From Paecilomyces variotii (lineage: Eukaryota): a DNA stretch of 64,000 bases. The position numbers and the translations under genes are program-made. The notes below the pieces were generated by a model. That model was not told the DNA's origin, did no database searches, and saw nothing but the letters and a program-made list of their open reading frames with translations. The stretch lies in NCBI GenBank assembly GCA_004022145.1, contig RCNU01000016.1; one strand, 5' to 3'. Below, piece after piece: positions 8,170 through 57,576 of this stretch; the stretch's first letter is position 1; every line of letters begins with the position of its first letter.

Positions 8170-9354
8170 TTATATAGGAGCATCTTTCTTAAACGTGCCG
8201 TCAGCCTGCACGAGAAATGGATCACCCTTTATTGGTGGGGGTGCAGGGGACCAGCACCTGTAGCATCGGCGCCTGTCCCATACCTTAGCTGCTTCGCATT
8301 CGAGGAAATGCTGGGGTAGCTGCTCGATTGTATATGCACGAAGTATGGCCCTGTGCTTTTGCTTGCTAGAAGAATAGAATGAGCCGGGGACAAATGAACA
8401 TGCCGAGCAATAGAGACCCTTCTGGATCACTCTCTTGCTGGGATCCCAAACTGGGAAATGCGCTGAAGCCATAAAGGCAGGGTAGTCGCTATTCCCACTC
8501 TCCAAAGAAGGCACTTTTAATTCTCTCGGGAAACGAGGTCTTCTGCTATGCTGTCTGCAATTCTCGAGCTCATCAATTGCAGTTGAGGTTTCGCCGGCAT
8601 TTTGTTTTTGCCAATCAGCCACAGCATCAAAGTGCCATCTCGACAAGTCATCGCGATATGTTGAAGCAGCTTCAATGCTCTCTTCAATACTTCCGTGGAT
8701 CTTTGTGGCTAAAGTCAGGATATCCTGTAGCCTAACAAGACGCCGTCGCTGCCTGACGTCTCTCGCATTGCCATACCTTCCCGGAATAGTATATATAGTG
8801 ACAAGCTCTTTTGTATCGCTCACAGACAGACAATATTGTACGGATGCATCGAAAAGCGATACCAGTATGTAACTCTCTCTGAACTTCAGACAATAAACGC
8901 AACATCGGGTAAAGTCCATGAGAAAAACACAAGGTCCGAAATCGCCACATGTGCGGCAGTATGGCTGGCAAAATTCATCGAATATGCGATAAATGTTGAA
9001 GAAGCGCGCTGTCCGTGTCATGTGCATGATCTGGAGCACTTCAGAAGCATGTTCTCGAAGAATCTTATATGCAGGAAGATTGGTCGCTACCGAAAAGTAT
9101 GTCCTGTTGAGTTGACGTACGGCACGAAGTGCATCCAGGTCGAGAAACATCAAAACTTCATCGAGGATCTCTCTTGGGAAGGCCTTCAGATTTCCAAGTG
9201 ATGCTTTTCGTTGCCTGTTAGGAGACAAAACAACTCCATGTACAATGTCCGTGCCATAGCTCCTGTTTCGTGTATCTATCATTTCTGACCAGGCAGACAG
9301 ATTCAGCATCCATGCATCCTCTTCGTCGATGCAATACGCAAGGCCTGAGGCCAT
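8170..9354 (-). CDS. F-box domain protein with Cys-rich (CxxCGDFG...RCCxxC) region
   Basis: Single 394-aa ORF. F-box-like segment LGNLKAFPREILDEVLMFLDLDALRAVRQLNR, then CRTCGDFGPCVFLMDFTRCCVYCL and a C-terminal GLYCSAC...HFLEC, as seen in an expanded fungal F-box family. Confidence 0.8.
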   Translation of the reverse strand: MASGLAYCIDEEDAWMLNLSAWSEMIDTRNRSYGTDIVHGVVLSPNRQRKASLGNLKAFPREILDEVLMFLDLDALRAVRQLNRTYFSVATNLPAYKILREHASEVLQIMHMTRTARFFNIYRIFDEFCQPYCRTCGDFGPCVFLMDFTRCCVYCLKFRESYILVSLFDASVQYCLSVSDTKELVTIYTIPGRYGNARDVRQRRRLVRLQDILTLATKIHGSIEESIEAASTYRDDLSRWHFDAVADWQKQNAGETSTAIDELENCRQHSRRPRFPRELKVPSLESGNSDYPAFMASAHFPVWDPSKRVIQKGLYCSACSFVPGSFYSSSKQKHRAILRAYTIEQLPQHFLECEAAKVWDRRRCYRCWSPAPPPIKGDPFLVQADGTFKKDAPI

Positions 9355-10015
9355 TGTTTCTGCAATTCATGAACAATATTTAAGCTGTTATAAGAATTAC
9401 GATGCTGAAGCTATATACTTCACAGTTACTTCTTGATACAACTCATGTACGTCATTATAATGAGCACTGTTCCTAGGCAACAATCCAAAAACCTAATCCG
9501 ACCCCCAGCATTTATCGGCGGATGATATATAGGGAGACGTAGTTCAGTAATCCACTCAATAGAGGAGATATCTGAAGAGTGAATGACATTATTATCGTAT
9601 TCTTTGGGAATTTTATGTAATCTAGTTCCTTAGTAGATTGGCCATCAGGTCCTGCATCTCCGTTTTTACCAAAAGTAGACGTCTGAAAATGGATTCCTCC
9701 TTGATTAATCACAATTCTGCGTAAGCTTCACTGACGGTCTCGATGAACTTGGGCAAGCTCGTATTAGGGTAGTGCCTCCCAGAGATAGACCGATTCTGTC
9801 TCAGGAAACAGTAAACCGCGTTGTACGAACTATGGAAGGCACGTTTAATGCTTCCATTCCATTAAAAGGCGTACTACTGTCAACGTCTCTCCTTGTAGTT
9901 CAGTATTCACACGTACAGCACCAGGTAAGTTCAGTGGCCCTGATACGGTTGTTTAATGTCCGCCGCGGAGCTAATTAAATATCGATGGTTCTCGCCACAG
10001 GAAAGTCAAAACAAG

Positions 10016-10577: not shown

Positions 10578-10835
10578 TGTATTATTCATCTTACATAATC
10601 ATCTTCCTTATCGATAACCAACCTCACCACACCACATCGAACAAGTGAGTGACGCAGTCCCCGATTCTCTTTCGTACTCGATTATATCCTCCTTCAACTG
10701 GCCTTCTTCTTACAAGTGATTTACAAGGCTACCTTCTGGACACCTTCTGTTTGAGTCCGTGACTGCCGAGACCCAGCGGTACCATGTCGCTGTCAGCCCC
10801 TCTACCCTCGACTTTCTGATCACAGGGCGCCCGCT

Positions 10836-12950
10836 ATGGCACCTTCTCTGCACTCTCCACCAGCACGCCGCTCCTCGAGATCATCGCGCCCTCTTAGGTC
10901 GAGTCGCATGCGCGTGCAGACTTATCAGGAGAGCAGTTCGAATTCGGATGACAACGACAACTCATCATCGTCATATGAGGACCAAGAGTTCCCGGGCAAC
11001 TCGTCTCTCTCACTGCGCCCGCGACGTCCAGACCGGGTGCCACGCACGTACCGGGAATCAAGCACGGAACAAAGCCACGATGAAGATGGGGAATCTGAAG
11101 AAACAGTCACCGTCGAAGCGACCACAAATGGCCATGCACCCTCCCGTCCTCGACGCAGTGCGCCTAGGACCCGCAGTTCCAACACCAGGTCATCGAAGAC
11201 ATCGTCGAGCAGGAAAAGAAAACGGATAGGAGACCCTCTGAAGAAGCGCAAGAAGACGGAGATAGAAGAGTTTCCCTTTGTCGGATCTGGCACGATACCT
11301 CCTTGGCAGACCTTGCCCTACCACATCCTCTTTGACATCTTCTACTACGCGTCCTATCCACTGGTGGATAAGCAGACTGCAACTCGAAACAGCTCCGTAT
11401 CATGGCTGGCTGCGGTGGCTCGTCTATGTCGTGCTTTCCATGAGCCTGCACTAGCTGCGCTATATCATTCGCCTGCTCTTCTGCCCGCTGCGAAGAGCCA
11501 TGGTTTATTGAGCCTGTTGTGGGAGCCTCAGGAATCGCTGTCCACGAACTACGTTTCCAAGGTCAAGGAGTTGCATGTAGATGCGGAAAGTCTTCTTGTT
11601 TACAAGAGTGGTCCGGCTTTGGGCTATTTTGATCTGACGAGTCTCATCCAAAGGACGCCTCAGCTGAGAAAACTGCAGCTGTACCACAAGGATGACTGTC
11701 TGGTCGGACTTCCACCCTGGCAGATCCCGGCGTCAAAATGGACATATCCAGGCAATCTCTTTGTGACCCTGAACCAGTCCGGGATACATCTTCGGAGCTG
11801 GGACTGGAACGCACGCTTCATGGAGTCCGACCGCCTGGTGCCGCTCATATTGGGAAACCATCGAGAACCCGCTTTTCATAGCCTGCGCGAAGTCAGGATG
11901 TTGCATCTCAGTTACTCTGAGGACGAGGATCCGTCAAACTCGAGGGAAATGGTCCTGGCTACAGCCTTGAAAGAACTTCCTGAACTGCGGCGCCTTGAGT
12001 TCGTTGAATGTTCTATCGTCAATGAGATCCTTCTGTCCAATCTACCGTCGACACTGACATCCTTGACCATTGATAACTGCGACGATGTGGCAACATCGAA
12101 TTTCATCCCGTTCCTTGCGACCCATGGCCACAATCTTCGTGAATTAACACTGAGCCACAATCGCCATCTCAACATGTCCTTTGCCGTCAACCTAGCCCAG
12201 TACTGCAAACAGCTGGTGAGATTCAAGATGGATCTCTCCATTCATGACTGGTCGAGCTACCACGACAACGAGCCCCATTTCAAGCAGCTCCTTGGCCCTT
12301 CGGAGATTCCCACTTGGCCACCAACTCTGCAGGAGATCGAACTGATCCATCTCCGCAAGTGGGATGATTTCATAGCAGAAGCTTTCTTCACTTCCCTTAT
12401 CGAATCCGCTCCTGACCTGAAGGATTTGAGAAAGCTGGTAATCAGTGCCATCTTAAAAATAGGCTGGCGCGACCGGGCCAACTTCCGTGAGAGATGGATC
12501 GGAAAACTTGAGAGCGTCTTTCTCAGAAGAAGCCCTCCTCCTGATCCTGCCCTCCGGACACTGGCCAAATCAACAACTACTGCAGAGGACCAGCACCGGC
12601 AATCTGACACTCACGACGGGAACGAGACTTCGCCACAGGACTTCCCTCCGACTCCATCCAAGCGCAAGAGTGCTCGGATCGCTCAGCAGCACATTGCTGA
12701 AACGGAGCACGACACGGATGGGTCGCAGGTGTCGAACTCCGCTTGCGCACCTGCTCGTGATGGAAGAGAGAAAGACCCGCCGATAAAGCATGTCCAGGGC
12801 ATGTGCGATGTTGTCATGATCCGCATTGACAACAGCCGTCCGGCCGAGACCCAATTTAACGAGGACGACTTCCTCGATGACGAGTTAAGTGGGGATGAAG
12901 ATTGGGATGGCAACGATCCTGACCCTGATGGCGGCGGCCATGCGTGGTAA
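10836..12950 (+). CDS. F-box-like / leucine-rich-repeat (RNI-like) protein, conserved fungal hypothetical
   Basis: 704-aa single ORF. It has a disordered basic/acidic N-terminus with an NLS-like RKRKR, F-box-like PPWQTLPYHILFDIF, and LRR-like repeats (LPELRRLEFVEC, LTSLTIDNC, LRELTLSHN). Confidence 0.75.
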   Translation: MAPSLHSPPARRSSRSSRPLRSSRMRVQTYQESSSNSDDNDNSSSSYEDQEFPGNSSLSLRPRRPDRVPRTYRESSTEQSHDEDGESEETVTVEATTNGHAPSRPRRSAPRTRSSNTRSSKTSSSRKRKRIGDPLKKRKKTEIEEFPFVGSGTIPPWQTLPYHILFDIFYYASYPLVDKQTATRNSSVSWLAAVARLCRAFHEPALAALYHSPALLPAAKSHGLLSLLWEPQESLSTNYVSKVKELHVDAESLLVYKSGPALGYFDLTSLIQRTPQLRKLQLYHKDDCLVGLPPWQIPASKWTYPGNLFVTLNQSGIHLRSWDWNARFMESDRLVPLILGNHREPAFHSLREVRMLHLSYSEDEDPSNSREMVLATALKELPELRRLEFVECSIVNEILLSNLPSTLTSLTIDNCDDVATSNFIPFLATHGHNLRELTLSHNRHLNMSFAVNLAQYCKQLVRFKMDLSIHDWSSYHDNEPHFKQLLGPSEIPTWPPTLQEIELIHLRKWDDFIAEAFFTSLIESAPDLKDLRKLVISAILKIGWRDRANFRERWIGKLESVFLRRSPPPDPALRTLAKSTTTAEDQHRQSDTHDGNETSPQDFPPTPSKRKSARIAQQHIAETEHDTDGSQVSNSACAPARDGREKDPPIKHVQGMCDVVMIRIDNSRPAETQFNEDDFLDDELSGDEDWDGNDPDPDGGGHAW

Positions 12951-52078: not shown

Positions 52079-53186
52079 GGGTACACGTCGACATACTCAA
52101 GCGACCGGAGGATTGGGTCATCACGGGCAACGACTGATCAGCGAGATTCGCGTAGATGACGACAGGGAACACTAGTTTGGCAGTCTTTCAAGCCCATGCG
52201 TACAGAGAAGACATTACGACTGAGGCCTAAGTCATCCGGACGGCTTCTTGAGTTGCTCCACGATGATGATGACGATGACGACGATGATAATGTGATATGC
52301 CACGACTCATATAATTAATATAGGCGACGGTGTTCGTGTATCTTGTAGAGTATAAGTGATATCCAGCGGAGTCTCGCAAGGGATAAGGGTCATATAGTTA
52401 GTTAATGGAAGCACATGGATGATTGACTCGAAGAATTCTTCTAGACAGCTGACATTATTCTCTTCGTTTGGAGTAAGGCGGCTTGTTTTCCCCGGCTGGT
52501 CCGTGGAGGTATGTGCTCTTCTGCTTCTTCCTAGAAAAAAACAAGAATATCTCCAGGACCCTGACCGGCCCTAGAAGCGATCTTCAGCCGAATCTCTTTG
52601 GACCCACCAAAGCTGAAGCTGACGAACACTAGCCAAGGCCCAAGAGTAGCGTTCGCTGCTCGTCTGCGATCTCACGGTTCCTGTTCGTCAATGCTATTTG
52701 GAAGCTTCAATAGTTCCCGCCGCGTTCTTCAACTAGCTTGTCGCCAATCATGACCCGAGAGTAATTAAACTCCATATCTACAACTCGTATCTTCATTTGT
52801 GTGCAGTCAGCCAGTCACAAACTCCCAGGTATTCGTACGGGCTCCCGACACTCTGGGGACGGACCGCAGGCCTAGAGTCAGCTAGGGCCTGGGTCTTCAT
52901 GTCTTGATGAGTTAGGTTGTTACTCTCCTCGTATCTACTCCCCTGGGTTCCGGGACAATGGTCACTAGATAAGCGGAGCCTGCTGATTTCAGCTATCATT
53001 CAAGTAGCTCTGCAGCTCAGTATGGGTCGAGTATAAGATGTCGCCCGCTTTCTGGCTTCCCAGGATATGTGCGTGGAAAGTCTCGTTGATGCTTTGATCT
53101 GGAATTGAACCAATCATTCGTTCGGTTTACTATTTTTTTTTTCTTTCTGTTTGTTGCGTGTTGAGGACCATCATATATCAGACATA

Positions 53187-54071
53187 ATGTTTCTCCCCTC
53201 GTTATCCCTTGGGCTGCTTCTCTCATCGTCTGTCGCCTATGGTTTACCTACCAACTCAACAGCATCCAACAGTACTCCGTCACCTCTACGCCCTCACAAT
53301 GATTTCTCCTGTCGCAGCACCGAGTACCCGAACCCGGTCGTTCTACTCCACGGCCTCGGCGCGACATATTACGAGGACCTCAACTACCTCGAAGCCTGGT
53401 TGCAGATCCAAGGCCATTGCACATTTTCCATAACCTACGGTGCATACGATGGTTTCCCCTTCGTCGGAGGCCTCAAGCCCATCAATGAATCGGCACAAGA
53501 GATCGCATCCTTCATTCAGGAAGTCCAGACCAAAACCGGTGCCGACAAGATCAACCTTGTCGGACACTCTGAAGGTGCCTTCCAGAGTCTTTATGTACCT
53601 AAGTTCACGGGCGTGAGCCCCATCATCGACAAGGTTGTAGCCATTGCGCCTCCGACTCATGGAACCACCTTTGCGAATCTTTGGGACCTTGCGTACCTCC
53701 TCGGCAACGGAACCCGCGAAGCCGTCGGCGATGTCTTGCGTGCTGTTGGCTGCGCTGCCTGCGACGATCTCAGCGTTGGTGGAGCGGCGATTGCGAAGCT
53801 GAACGATGGAACTCCTATCCACCAACCTGGTAATCAATTGACAGTGATTGCATCCAAGGATGATGAACTCGTCACTCCCTCAGGCACGGCCAGCTGGGTC
53901 GAAGAGGACGGAGTGACGAACGAATACGTCCAGAACACCTGCTCCTTTGACCCCGTCGGACATATAGGCGAGGCGTACGACTTGAATGTTTGGAATTTGG
54001 TCAAGAACGCCCTGGAGGGGACGCCGGATCGGGCATTTACCTGTGTTGTCGGATCACCGGGCAAGAGATAG
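53187..54071 (+). CDS. Secreted lipase/esterase (lipase class 2, alpha/beta hydrolase)
   Basis: Intronless, with signal peptide MFLPSLSLGLLLSSSVAYG, PVVLLHGLG, nucleophile GHSEG, APPTHGT, SKDDELVTP (Asp) and DPVGHIG (His). Confidence 0.9.
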   Translation: MFLPSLSLGLLLSSSVAYGLPTNSTASNSTPSPLRPHNDFSCRSTEYPNPVVLLHGLGATYYEDLNYLEAWLQIQGHCTFSITYGAYDGFPFVGGLKPINESAQEIASFIQEVQTKTGADKINLVGHSEGAFQSLYVPKFTGVSPIIDKVVAIAPPTHGTTFANLWDLAYLLGNGTREAVGDVLRAVGCAACDDLSVGGAAIAKLNDGTPIHQPGNQLTVIASKDDELVTPSGTASWVEEDGVTNEYVQNTCSFDPVGHIGEAYDLNVWNLVKNALEGTPDRAFTCVVGSPGKR

Positions 54072-54293
54072 TTGGGTATATAATTGATTATCATCTAGTT
54101 TTATGCATGCTTGTGGCCTTACAAGAAAGGAAGTCATGATATGGATTGTAGACGTTTGTTTGCAGTTGAGAATACCCGGGTCATAGTACGTTTTGCAATT
54201 TGAGGGAATTTCCACGCAGAAAAGTGTTGATTTAATTTACTACTATCGAGTTAATCATTGTCTGCTAGGAGCATATTATAAGGAACCTATCGC

Positions 54294-55100
54294 TCAAGAA
54301 TGATGGCTACTCGCATGGCCTCTGGAAACATCGCATTGTGATATTTCTGCGAAAACAGGCTCCTGGCAGTCCGGGTCATTTTGCAAGCACCATGGGATGC
54401 GGCCCTTGTGGCAACGGAGTTCCTTGTCAAGATGATAGAGACCATGACCGGGCTGCTTGGAAACTCTTACCACCTGTTGGAGCAAGTCACCGATGTCCTT
54501 GACGTGCTTGGATTCTTTACGCAAGAACTTCGTCTGGATAGCGTCCGTGAGGGAGTGATTGTTGCATTTCTGAGCCAGCGCGCACAATCGCTCTAGATCC
54601 TGGAGCACGTTCTTCTCGATACTGAGAGCCTCCCTGACCGGGTGGACGGGCTCGACTGGGTGGTCAGGCCATTCGATCTTGGGAGCCTCAATGGCAGTAG
54701 GCTTGGAGCGGCCACCACGGGAGATGAGGTATTTCTCCAACCAGTACATGTCTGCGAGGCACTCGGTAGCACGACGCTGCCAGAGCCTAGAATGGTCAGT
54801 TTGCTGGTCAGAAACACCCTCGTGATAAAGGGAATGCTTACATGGAGAAACCATGCAGCGCGATATTGGTACGAGCGCAGTCGGCTGCCAGCTTGCGGTA
54901 GAACATCCAGGTGGTCAACTCCTCGTGGATGTGACCTCTCACTGACTGATTCTGTTAGCCCCAGAGTGCAACGTGTATAGTATCGATGACCATACTTCTT
55001 CCAATTCAATGGTGAATGTTTTATCCCGCACAAAGTCGTCGAGGTTCGTATTCGCCATCTCAGCGATCACCCTCTTCGCTTCTTCAGTACTATGCGCCAT
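54294..55100 (-). CDS. Ferritin-like protein (eukaryotic ferritin fold, atypical ferroxidase residues)
   Basis: Exons 55100-54996, 54945-54842, 54786-54294. It aligns by eye with ferritin H: HIHEEL..MFY, R.NIALHGF, RGGR, ALSIEKNV.Q.L..L..LA, L.D.I.T.FL, VKDIGD and G.GLYHLDKEL. Confidence 0.82.
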
Positions 55101-56663
55101 CTTGATAAGATCAAAATTCGAATCAGTTTTAATGGTTAGACTATTTCCTCTTGTGCTGTCTGTCTGTCTGTCTTGCTCATTGGGAGACTGCGCTAACACA
55201 AAGGGCATAGAGTGCTCATATACTTCTACTGTCGAGACCGAAGCACGAACCAGCAGATCATCATGACAACATATCAAGAAGGGCAATTCGTCTAGGCCCG
55301 ACAATCATACGGGGTCCTTCGATCAATTGATAGGATACCAGGTCCGCCGATTCCGCACAACTCCCAAGAAGCAGCCATCGGATATGTCGGCTGCTCTGTC
55401 AATTCGACACGATCACCCCAGTCAGGTACCAGTGAGAGTCATGATGAGAAAAAATGATTTCTCCATCGGAGCCGATCCGTGGACAATGGACATTTGGAGA
55501 CGAAACTCGCGACAGTCCCGTTCGATGTTTCTCAAGTATCGTTGTTTGTTGTCGGGGAACCAGAGCTATTGCGCCCATCTAGAATCGCGATTGAGTTTCC
55601 TATGTCTAAACGCACTGCTTGGTATCGAGAGAGTTTATCGAGAGTTTCATACTGGGGAGTTCCGATGCTGCGTCAACGGTGAGCGAAACATGACATAGTT
55701 TTTATGTTGGCTGCCACGTAGTACCTGTGGGAAAGGTAGGGCCGTATGTTGCCAGTATGATGAATGAAATACATAGTAAGCGGGGCCTTATATTTTTTTC
55801 GCATCTAGTCTGTTGAATAATGTTCAATAGGACAAATAGAATAATGTTTATGGTTCGAAAATGATGCTAAAGTCCGGGGGAAGCGGGACTGGCCATCCTG
55901 GCCTTAGTGGTATCCTTTCCCAACGAATGAGATTGAAGATTTGCGATGATTAAAACATGGCGCTATATACTATCAGACATTCGAACATTCGAATTATCTC
56001 AAAAGAAGAAGAAAAAAAGACATCATTGGAATGACTCTATTGTTTCCCTGATACTCCCATCCATTTCATAAAGGCAGCGATGAATATGTAGCGCTTGTCC
56101 GTCCGATAGCAATGTCTGTCGTCACTACGGAATCTAAACGAGTCCTCCTGTGGTTGGTTGATATATGGATTTGTAATTCTAATAGTCCGGGCTCTCCACA
56201 TGTGGATGAGAACTAGTTACAATATTCACATGAAGCAGAGCAATACTTTCTAATGTCAGGGAGACATGGCTTTTAGTTCTCAAGGCACGACCGACATAGC
56301 GATGCGGAAACGGCAGAGGAAAAGCCTGCAGAGTCTCTCTGGGAGTGTAATTGGGGTAAAATAGATATACTGCCCGTTCTGGATTCGGGGGTATGCAAGA
56401 TCCCTGTTCACCACGCTATCCATATTGACCATAGCAGGAGATGCTAGTGGTCTTCCTACCTTAATTAACCGGCCAATGGCGGTCGAGGGCAGAAATCGAA
56501 ATATAACTGGTCGTGCGATATGCTGTCGACGGAAGAAGAAATTATTATGTTGCATATAGATGACTTCATTTGAATACTAAGGTTCATGGCCAGCTGAACT
56601 GCACAAAGAACCTACTCGCGCACGTCGTTACGGTGGGAAATCCTGATGATATATGTTGCTATC

Positions 56664-57576
56664 TCACAGATGTGATCGACTCACTCCCAATGACTGCGCG
56701 ACGTCTTTGACCAATTTACCAGCTTCCGATGCCTTTTCCAATGTATGCCAATGGCCCACTCCGGACCAGCTCACTAATTCGACATTTCGGTTTCCCAAGC
56801 TCTCCTTGATCGCACGGCATGTTGCGGGCGCAGATACTTTATCCTCCTCGCCCGAAACAATGACGATTCGATTAGCGCGAATCTTGCTCCAGTTGGGATC
56901 TGTCGCTGCTGCGAGCGCCTCGCAGCCCATCGCGTAGCCTTCTTTATCCTGTCTGGAGAGCAGCTCACGAACATATCCCACTATCTCTGGGCGCGATGCT
57001 AGCGTCTGAGGAGCCAATGCAGCGGAGGCTATGGCATCCGCCGCTGCGGCCATACCTTTCTGGCGGACTGCAACAGCGCGGTTTCTGTTGGCCGATTTAG
57101 CAGCTTCTGGAAGTCCCTTTGCTGGTCCAAACAGCACGAGAGCAGAGGCCAGATTCGGCTCACTGGCAGCAAGATGCATGGCGACGAGACAGCCCATGGA
57201 ATGCCCGACAATGACGGGGTTCCTGGCCTTCAGGTGGGAGATCACGGCTGGCAATAGAGCGTAAGCAACTATATGAGTTCCTCGAAAGAAGACGGGGGTG
57301 TCTGCGAATTCAGGTCATCCTACCTTTGCAGTCCTCAACATATGTCTCGATGGTGGCTTTCTGTGACGGTACGGAACTCCGGCCATGTCCGGATAGATCA
57401 AATCGGACGAGACGGAAGTTTCGAAGAGAGGTTATCAACGGCTGGAATGTATTGAGAGTACCGCCTAGGCCATGGACGAAGAAGATAGTCTGGCTGGAGG
57501 CTTGTCCTTCTTCCTCGTAATATATCTGGCGATCATTGACAGCAATGAAGCCGTTGGACGTAATCGCGGACGCCAT
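56664..57576 (-). CDS. Alpha/beta hydrolase, 3-oxoadipate enol-lactonase (PcaD)-like
   Basis: Exons 57576-57324 and 57247-56664. Motifs: FVHGLGG, FDLSGHGRS, GHSMG, RAVAVRQKGM, EGYAMGCEAL, GEEDKV and GHWHTLE. Confidence 0.87.

Follow-up and report, generated by a model that had tools for sequence, protein, structure and literature searches.

The window analysed here, a stretch of 64,000 nucleotides of Paecilomyces variotii contig RCNU01000016.1, carries on its minus strand a ferritin-family gene (55100-54294) whose three exons encode a product of 233 residues, identical to the P. variotii protein P0069, which is annotated as hypothetical or ferritin-like. Exon 1 (54996..55100) encodes residues 1-35, that is the initiating ATG, the helices of an N-terminal extension (2-16 and 20-24) and the start of helix A. 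Exon 2 (54842..54945) provides residues 36-70 and the part of helix A that holds H40, E44, W48, Y51 and C58 (positions 23, 27, 31, 34 and 41 of the human H chain), and exon 3 (54294..54786) encodes residues 70-233 with helices B-E, the tail and the stop codon. GT..AG candidates with branch sites gave two gene models, and RNA contigs chose between them. Both introns, of 50 (54946..54995) and 55 bases (54787..54841), run from GT to AG and are exactly skipped in contigs of three of the four runs (X3, X5 and X9; three studies, and for X3 and X9 the RNA origin is a guess), and the contig of the fourth run, X1, is unspliced at the gene. The three-exon structure proposed in a preliminary description of this DNA is thus confirmed, and an alternative acceptor of intron 1 (44 nt, 235-residue product) was ruled out because the RNA contigs skip 50 nt. 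An in-frame upstream ATG could add 36 residues (55208-55101, minus strand; the 269-residue form P0076); aligned homologues begin near the second ATG, and the region of the upstream one is reached by just one of the three spliced contigs.

Convergent to this gene lies a lipase gene (Lipase_2; 53190-54071, plus strand), whose product is probably secreted and into which contigs of X5 and X9 continue uninterrupted from the ferritin gene, the 3' ends of both genes probably overlapping. The neighbours are this lipase and an alpha/beta hydrolase, and no metal-handling gene was detected among the long open reading frames scanned with Pfam (12 of 41). Further away, two long open reading frames of 398 and 731 residues (8173-9366, minus strand, and 10755-12947, plus strand) have no Pfam match. 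Neither an iron-responsive element nor any other Rfam RNA matched within 53000-57500, and motifs for SreA, CRE, STRE, BrlA, WetA and Yap1, in their consensus forms, are absent from the 1.56 kb upstream. Two CTGGCC hexamers stand 9 bases apart upstream of the gene (55889-55903, plus strand); this hexamer, which we take to resemble a VosA-type motif, occurs three times in the 1.56 kb for 0.76 expected, which is not significant evidence.

The product matches the Pfam Ferritin family (PF00210) at 49.8 bits for a cut-off of 24.5, and its AlphaFold2 model (pLDDT 94.4, 68-row alignment) contains helices A-E together with extra N- and C-terminal helices (residues 2-16, 20-24, 31-58, 66-92, 117-143, 147-178, 184-195, 203-206 and 208-227). 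The Pfam match, the model and its superpositions agree on a four-helix bundle, a long BC loop and helix E, in line with the initial recognition of four ferritin helices plus helix E. Structurally the model comes closest to eukaryotic ferritins, at a Z of about 24 and an rmsd of 1.2-1.9 A, artemin (7rvb) superposes on residues 21-204 with a Z of 20.5 and an rmsd of 2.7, and bacterioferritins do so at Z 18-19. A complex prediction of four copies with Fe, run without an alignment, scored 0.00 and is uninformative; the fold suggests that the protein may assemble as a ferritin-type 24-mer.

HMMER alignments to solved plant, invertebrate and human H ferritins are gap-free around the site residues and give the same register as the by-eye mapping of the preliminary description. 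In human H numbering, used hereafter for the site positions, the P. variotii protein carries H23, E27, W31, Y34, R57, E61, C62, D65, E107, D131, Q134, K140, E141 and H144. The retention of E27, Y34, E61 and E107 and the changes E62>C, H65>D, E140>K, Q141>E and A144>H therefore hold as first read, and comparison at the structural level brings back no canonical site; Q23>H, S31>W and the presence of R57 had been overlooked. With four of the seven residues of the H-type ferroxidase set (E27, Y34, E61, E62, H65, E107, Q141) present, and E62>C, H65>D and Q141>E, the centre is indeed not that of a standard ferroxidase. Of the acidic entry and transfer path only D131 is kept, together with E134>Q and E140>K, and the L-type nucleation positions, presumably 57, 60, 61 and 64, are occupied by R74, T77, E78 and A81 of the protein.

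Three segments of exon 3, on the minus strand, hold the altered centre: E78-C79-x-x-D82 (54750..54764; E61, E62>C and H65>D), a weak A/B half-site; E127 (54615..54617; E107), the ligand on helix C according to the alignment; and K160-E161-x-x-H164 (54504..54518; E140>K, Q141>E and A144>H), a new Glu-x-x-His motif on helix D. Diiron cofactor sites of the bacterioferritin and class II type have a Glu and a Glu-x-x-His motif twice; here the C/D half alone has this form, and helix B reads C-x-x-D. A disulfide between C41 and C62 was considered and is unlikely, as C58 ends helix A in the model and C79 sits 13 residues into helix B.

Homologues were collected by two word-index searches (68 of 78 and 95 of 2335 candidates) and an exhaustive search (92 representatives), and conservation was counted over 45 full-length rows, leaving out fragments and visibly mis-spliced models. 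The substitutions are family-wide in these rows: H23 occurs in 45, E27 in 43, W31 in 44, C41 in 42, R57 in 43, E61 in 43, C62 in 43, D65 in 44, E107 in 38, K140 in 44, E141 in 32 and H144 in 43. Position 34 is Tyr in 18 rows and Phe in 27, D131 is kept in 35/45 and position 134 is Glu in 19/45. A wider set of 129 proteins (fragments included, five excluded) agrees, with C62 in 68/73, D65 in 75/78, K140 in 116/123, E141 in 84/123 and H144 in 105/123. H23, E27, E61, C62, D65 and K140 stand together in 40 of the 45 rows, and three or four of the canonical seven residues are kept in 39/45 members versus six to seven in 12 hand-picked canonical rows. Members measure 201-244 residues, with a median of 5 Cys.

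The family is fungal and comprises Pezizomycotina, Glomeromycota and one protein from an assembly labelled as chytrid, which could be a contaminant. Its other named members belong to Eurotiales, Onygenales, Sordariomycetes and Dothideomycetes, with a lichen MAG as a further source. Acaulospora and Geosiphon provide outer members, and a Diversispora fragment differs on helix D; Glomeromycota are thinly sampled, since a search that started from the Acaulospora protein recovered nothing but that protein at E 1e-25. In a 43-row tree (midpoint root) the core clade has a support of 100/99, groups with the Glomeromycota-type rows at 99/96, and stands apart from canonical ferritins at 100/99. Union with the early-fungal canonical ferritins was rejected (p-AU 0.014), and so was union with plant and algal ferritins (p-AU 0.028, a weak result on long branches), by which a transfer from plants was set aside; in both cases the groups were picked after viewing the tree. 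Passages of the reviews PMC4133162 and PMC5812535 describe ferritin as lost in, or absent from, higher fungi. A conserved and spliced ferritin clade nevertheless spans the Eurotio-, Sordario- and Dothideomycetes and extends to Glomeromycota.

Several peculiarities surfaced in the collection. P0183, P0248, P0249 and P0250 make up a second, independent ferritin group with F27, R62, D65, K140 and a C-terminal extension, nested among early-fungal-type canonical ferritins. The gene models P0156 (Geosiphon, 748 residues) and P0091 (V. dahliae, 517 residues) extend beyond the ferritin domain, in P0156 with sequence that looks methyltransferase-like by eye, through either fusion or annotation merge. 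Two or more copies are frequent in Penicillium genomes (P0017/P0234, P0036/P0232, P0239/P0241). The reference gene model of A. fumigatus, P0084 (AFUA_8G02670), misses the N-terminal 80 residues, and this truncation may be a reason why the family was overlooked.

In ferritin-like bundles a pseudo-twofold relates helices A/B to helices C/D, and in the P. variotii protein the corresponding spacings are 35 and 34 residues. Read across this axis, the pairs 62/141 and 65/144 are E/Q and H/(S,A) in the 12 hand-picked canonical rows and C/E and D/H in the family, so that the tight half, a Glu plus Glu-x-x-His, appears to have switched sides. Canonical rows have Gln at 141 in 12/12 and Ser or Ala at 144 in 10/12, against the predominance of E141 and H144 given above, and judged from these alignments the Glu-x-x-His motif on helix D is a gain. 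The Q141-x-x-D144 present in two natural ferritins, 7xz4 and 9x0k, mirrors C62-x-x-D65. The canonical centre may be pictured as a tight half E27 + E62-x-x-H65 on A/B and a loose half E107 + Q141-x-x-A/S/D144 on C/D. The P. variotii site would then be its near mirror image, with a tight half E107 + E141-x-x-H144, E61 lying behind it, and a loose half E27 + C62-x-x-D65 whose D65 would be salt-bridged to K140. From diiron geometry we assume that position 61 backs His 144 and that position 140 backs 65. E61-H144 would then be an ordinary second-shell pair, and in K140-D65 the charges would be swapped. The mirror is imperfect, as Tyr is absent at 114 and H23 has no counterpart.

These features, in our view, fit best an old fungal ferritin paralogue devoid of a standard ferroxidase centre, which would form a cage without canonical ferroxidase activity, retain a residual single-metal C/D site, line its cavity with its tail and act protectively in resting or stressed cells. 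We hold this explanation as a whole only tentatively, at somewhat less than an even chance. It is weakened by the fact that the D65-K140 and E61-H144 pairs and the ligand geometry depend on general diiron-bundle geometry, and it gains from the presence of D65 and K140 in the unrelated F27 + R62 group.

A tree built without the site columns indicates how the two halves have fared. The A/B side is near-frozen, with 0-2 changes (H23 0, D65 1, R57 1, C62 2, E27 2, E61 2), and K140 changed once and H144 twice; E107 changed 5 times, E141 9 times and Y34 12 times, and the threefold-channel positions D131 and E134 changed 8 and 11 times. Six members from Eurotiales and Onygenales, A. fumigatus included (P0022, P0008, P0233, P0235, P0245 and P0033), combine E107>Q with E141>H, Q or K, and their C/D half-site may be read from sequence as degraded or re-specialised. 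Raw counts over 109 rows link the losses of E107, E141 and H144 strongly (Fisher p 3e-4 to 1e-8); a phylogenetically independent test had too few pairs to draw on, 2-3 on starred branches, and was not significant. Because E141 has decayed repeatedly, the function that the family conserves is unlikely to be ferroxidation, and such recurrent ligand loss, as aligned, speaks against a dimetal redox chemistry being essential. Three deep rows (P0156, P0169 and P0238) have Ala at position 62, and therefore a small side chain, not a thiolate, seems to be required there.

The same observations bear on the reading that the mirror-image centre is alive, as a working ferroxidase or a peroxide-consuming dimetal enzyme with Fe1 at E107/E141/H144 and a labile Fe2 at E27/E141/D65. 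C62 would then either take the role of the canonical Q141 or serve as a thiolate ligand, in a ligand set not known from natural ferritins. In its favour, the six positions (E, C, D, E, E, H) all hold potential ligands in 29/45 members, the set goes back to Glomeromycota (complete in P0150, with A62 in P0156), and the first-shell positions of the P. variotii protein are free of blocking Lys or Arg. Yet E107 and E141 are the very positions that vary while the remaining site stays fixed, C62 gives way to Ala in the deep members, most members have Phe at 34 with no Tyr at the mirror position 114, and K140 removes the transfer carboxylate, so that we regard a live centre as unlikely. Slightly less likely still is the fuller proposal that a dimetal centre flipped across the pseudo-twofold (tight E107/E141/H144, labile E27/C62/D65) keeps turning over Fe(II) or peroxide, housed in resting structures within an artemin-like cage that the tail lines; if true, it would represent both a ligand set new to the natural ferritin superfamily and a ferritin-type stress system of ascomycetes, a group said in reviews to have no ferritin.

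Under the preferred explanation of a protective paralogue, members with E107, E141 and H144, the P. variotii protein included, would bind a single divalent ion (Fe, Mn or Zn), and catalytic turnover would be slight or nil. K140 and R57 would take the place of acidic transfer and nucleation residues, which makes an iron core unlikely. This bears directly on the annotated function, an iron-storage ferritin with slow, L-chain-like mineralisation, which the complete ferritin fold and the retention of D131, and of Glu at 134 in some members, could accommodate, and which the authors of PMC3145793 assumed, in the part of that paper available, in speaking of iron sequestration. The inner-surface acidic positions are nevertheless basic in nearly all members (R57 43/45, K140 44/45), and of the presumed L-type nucleation positions only 61 is acidic. 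Three genome searches, one each with P0069, with PF00210 and with a canonical fungal-type ferritin, brought up this locus alone above noise and, as lower bounds, no second ferritin above cut-off that could be an H-type partner, which also counts for the protective paralogue. The absence of an SreA-type motif upstream points the same way, although just 0.1 was expected by chance. We consider iron storage quite improbable.

The C-terminal extension (residues 196-233; 54297..54410, minus strand) is the second feature that sets the family apart. A Cys/His pattern had been noted in it; the pattern is present in the P. variotii sequence but is not conserved, C195, C203 and C210 being minority residues, and the tail as a metal motif was dropped because its Cys and His are not shared among homologues. 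What the family does conserve is a loop G-x-x-P-W-x-x-x-N-D-P (G198, P201, W202, N206, D207, P208) followed by an extra helix predicted at 208-227, with G198, P201, W202 and N206 each in 44-45 of the 45 full-length rows, and W202 and N206 changing 0 and 1 times on the tree. In the model monomer the artemin superposition ends at residue 204, and the tail helix is predicted beyond it. The preferred explanation would have this loop and helix line the cage interior in an artemin-like way, the family-wide job being that of a stress-protective cage in resting or ageing cells and metal buffering an optional extra.

The constancy of the tail also suits a metal-free, artemin-like holdase, in which the buried polar residues would form a network of hydrogen bonds and salt bridges and the tail and dimer surfaces would bind clients. 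Fold and tail are indeed kept in members without E107 and E141 (A. fumigatus, A. cristatus, two Talaromyces, Penicilliopsis and Malbranchea), and the length and tail layout of the family match those of artemin (229 residues). However, four of seven ferroxidase residues are kept and a Glu-x-x-His is gained here for one of seven kept in artemin, according to the accessible text of PMC9742257, the median of 5 Cys falls short of artemin's 10, and the conidial transcript level in A. fumigatus is low. A holdase devoid of metal therefore seems doubtful, on a par with the flipped redox cage and behind the protective paralogue with a residual metal site.

Expression data for homologues point to resting stages unevenly. 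In Verticillium dahliae, VDAG_02389 is, in the accessible part of PMC3852263, 42.48-fold up in microsclerotial cultures and listed as unknown, and has an FPKM of 0 at all of the six stages of a microsclerotia-forming strain in another study, PMC4035056, whose data do not separate an absent gene from a silent one. Passages of PMC3145793 call it an 'iron-binding ferritin' of lineage-specific region 1, report homologues in just one of four Fusarium genomes, that of F. oxysporum, and place the V. dahliae and F. oxysporum copies in lineage-specific regions. For A. fumigatus, AFUB_083920 (whose place in the family rests on the annotation Ferritin and on an inferred locus number and not on its sequence) has a log2FC of -4.34 in PMC13712828, that is 20-fold higher expression in the more dormant 37 C conidia, and moves the same way as catA, con-10 and atfA; its baseMean of 97 there, against 51,496 for con-10 and 10,276 for catA, makes it scarce in conidia, unlike abundant artemin. 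AFUB_083900, first considered as the A. fumigatus locus, proved to be a different gene, and the 'ferritin-like' genes of PMC7506082 and PMC8150946, which have signal peptides, were taken as another family. In the supplements of PMC4869263, PMC5838799 and PMC5946477 the A. fumigatus gene has no row, which is uninformative because two of these supplements cover only three-species orthologues or selected genes, and the accessible text of PMC2610380 does not mention the gene.

We found no functional or structural study of the family in the open full-text literature, and an earlier description in subscription papers is possible. The suggestion of a possibly undescribed protein thus stands as regards characterisation and not as regards recognition, since UniRef and NCBI name the family ferritin and PMC3145793, in the part available, noted those from Verticillium and Fusarium. 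The literature searched seems to contain no remark on the mirrored site or the artemin-like tail. The label 'iron-binding ferritin' is probably wrong in detail, and the likeliest role is to protect resting cells, not to store iron. The site offers a natural test of which ligand arrangement gives turnover and which a cofactor diiron site, a long-standing question of ferritin chemistry, and natural variants with and without the C/D ligands allow comparison. Should the protein be protective in spores or microsclerotia, this would bear on food-spoilage moulds and on the long-lived resting structures of crop fungi.

Compared with eukaryotic H-type and plant ferritins (7xz4, 6j4j, 3a68 and human H), the P. 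variotii protein shares the A-E fold at 26-31% identity, together with E27, E61, E107 and, in this member, Y34, and its N-terminal extension partly overlays the extension peptide of plant ferritin 3a68 (model residues 10-196). It differs from them by C62, D65, K140, E141, H144, H23, W31, R57, the 38-residue tail and its separate clade. Early-diverging fungi have canonical ferritins of the same fold, such as P0205 of Mortierella and P0197 of Jimgerdemannia, and these keep all seven site residues. L-chain ferritin also lacks the canonical ferroxidase centre; the P. variotii protein is distinct from it in having neither Lys62 nor an acidic nucleation patch nor, as far as the genome searches go, an H-chain partner. 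With bacterioferritin and class II sites, and with the frog M-ferritin 'EEH' mutant 3ka9 (judged by its title), it has in common a C/D half E107 + E141-x-x-H144 and a second-shell acid at 61, while its helix B half is C-x-x-D where bacterioferritin has E-x-x-H, at 8-10% identity. The position that we take to be the haem ligand of bacterioferritin is Leu. Artemin, the highly abundant Artemia cyst chaperone, is likewise a ferritin homologue of about 230 residues with a dead canonical site and ties to dormancy, and its helix E is followed by a Pro-containing loop and a further helix, as predicted for the P. variotii protein; within the accessible text of PMC9742257 it binds no iron and lines its cavity with a loop L' and a helix F. 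Its loss of six of seven ferroxidase residues is not reproduced in the P. variotii protein. The likeness is architectural only, given a Z of 20.5 for artemin and about 24 for ordinary ferritins, and probably convergent, because artemin is not among the top sequence matches.
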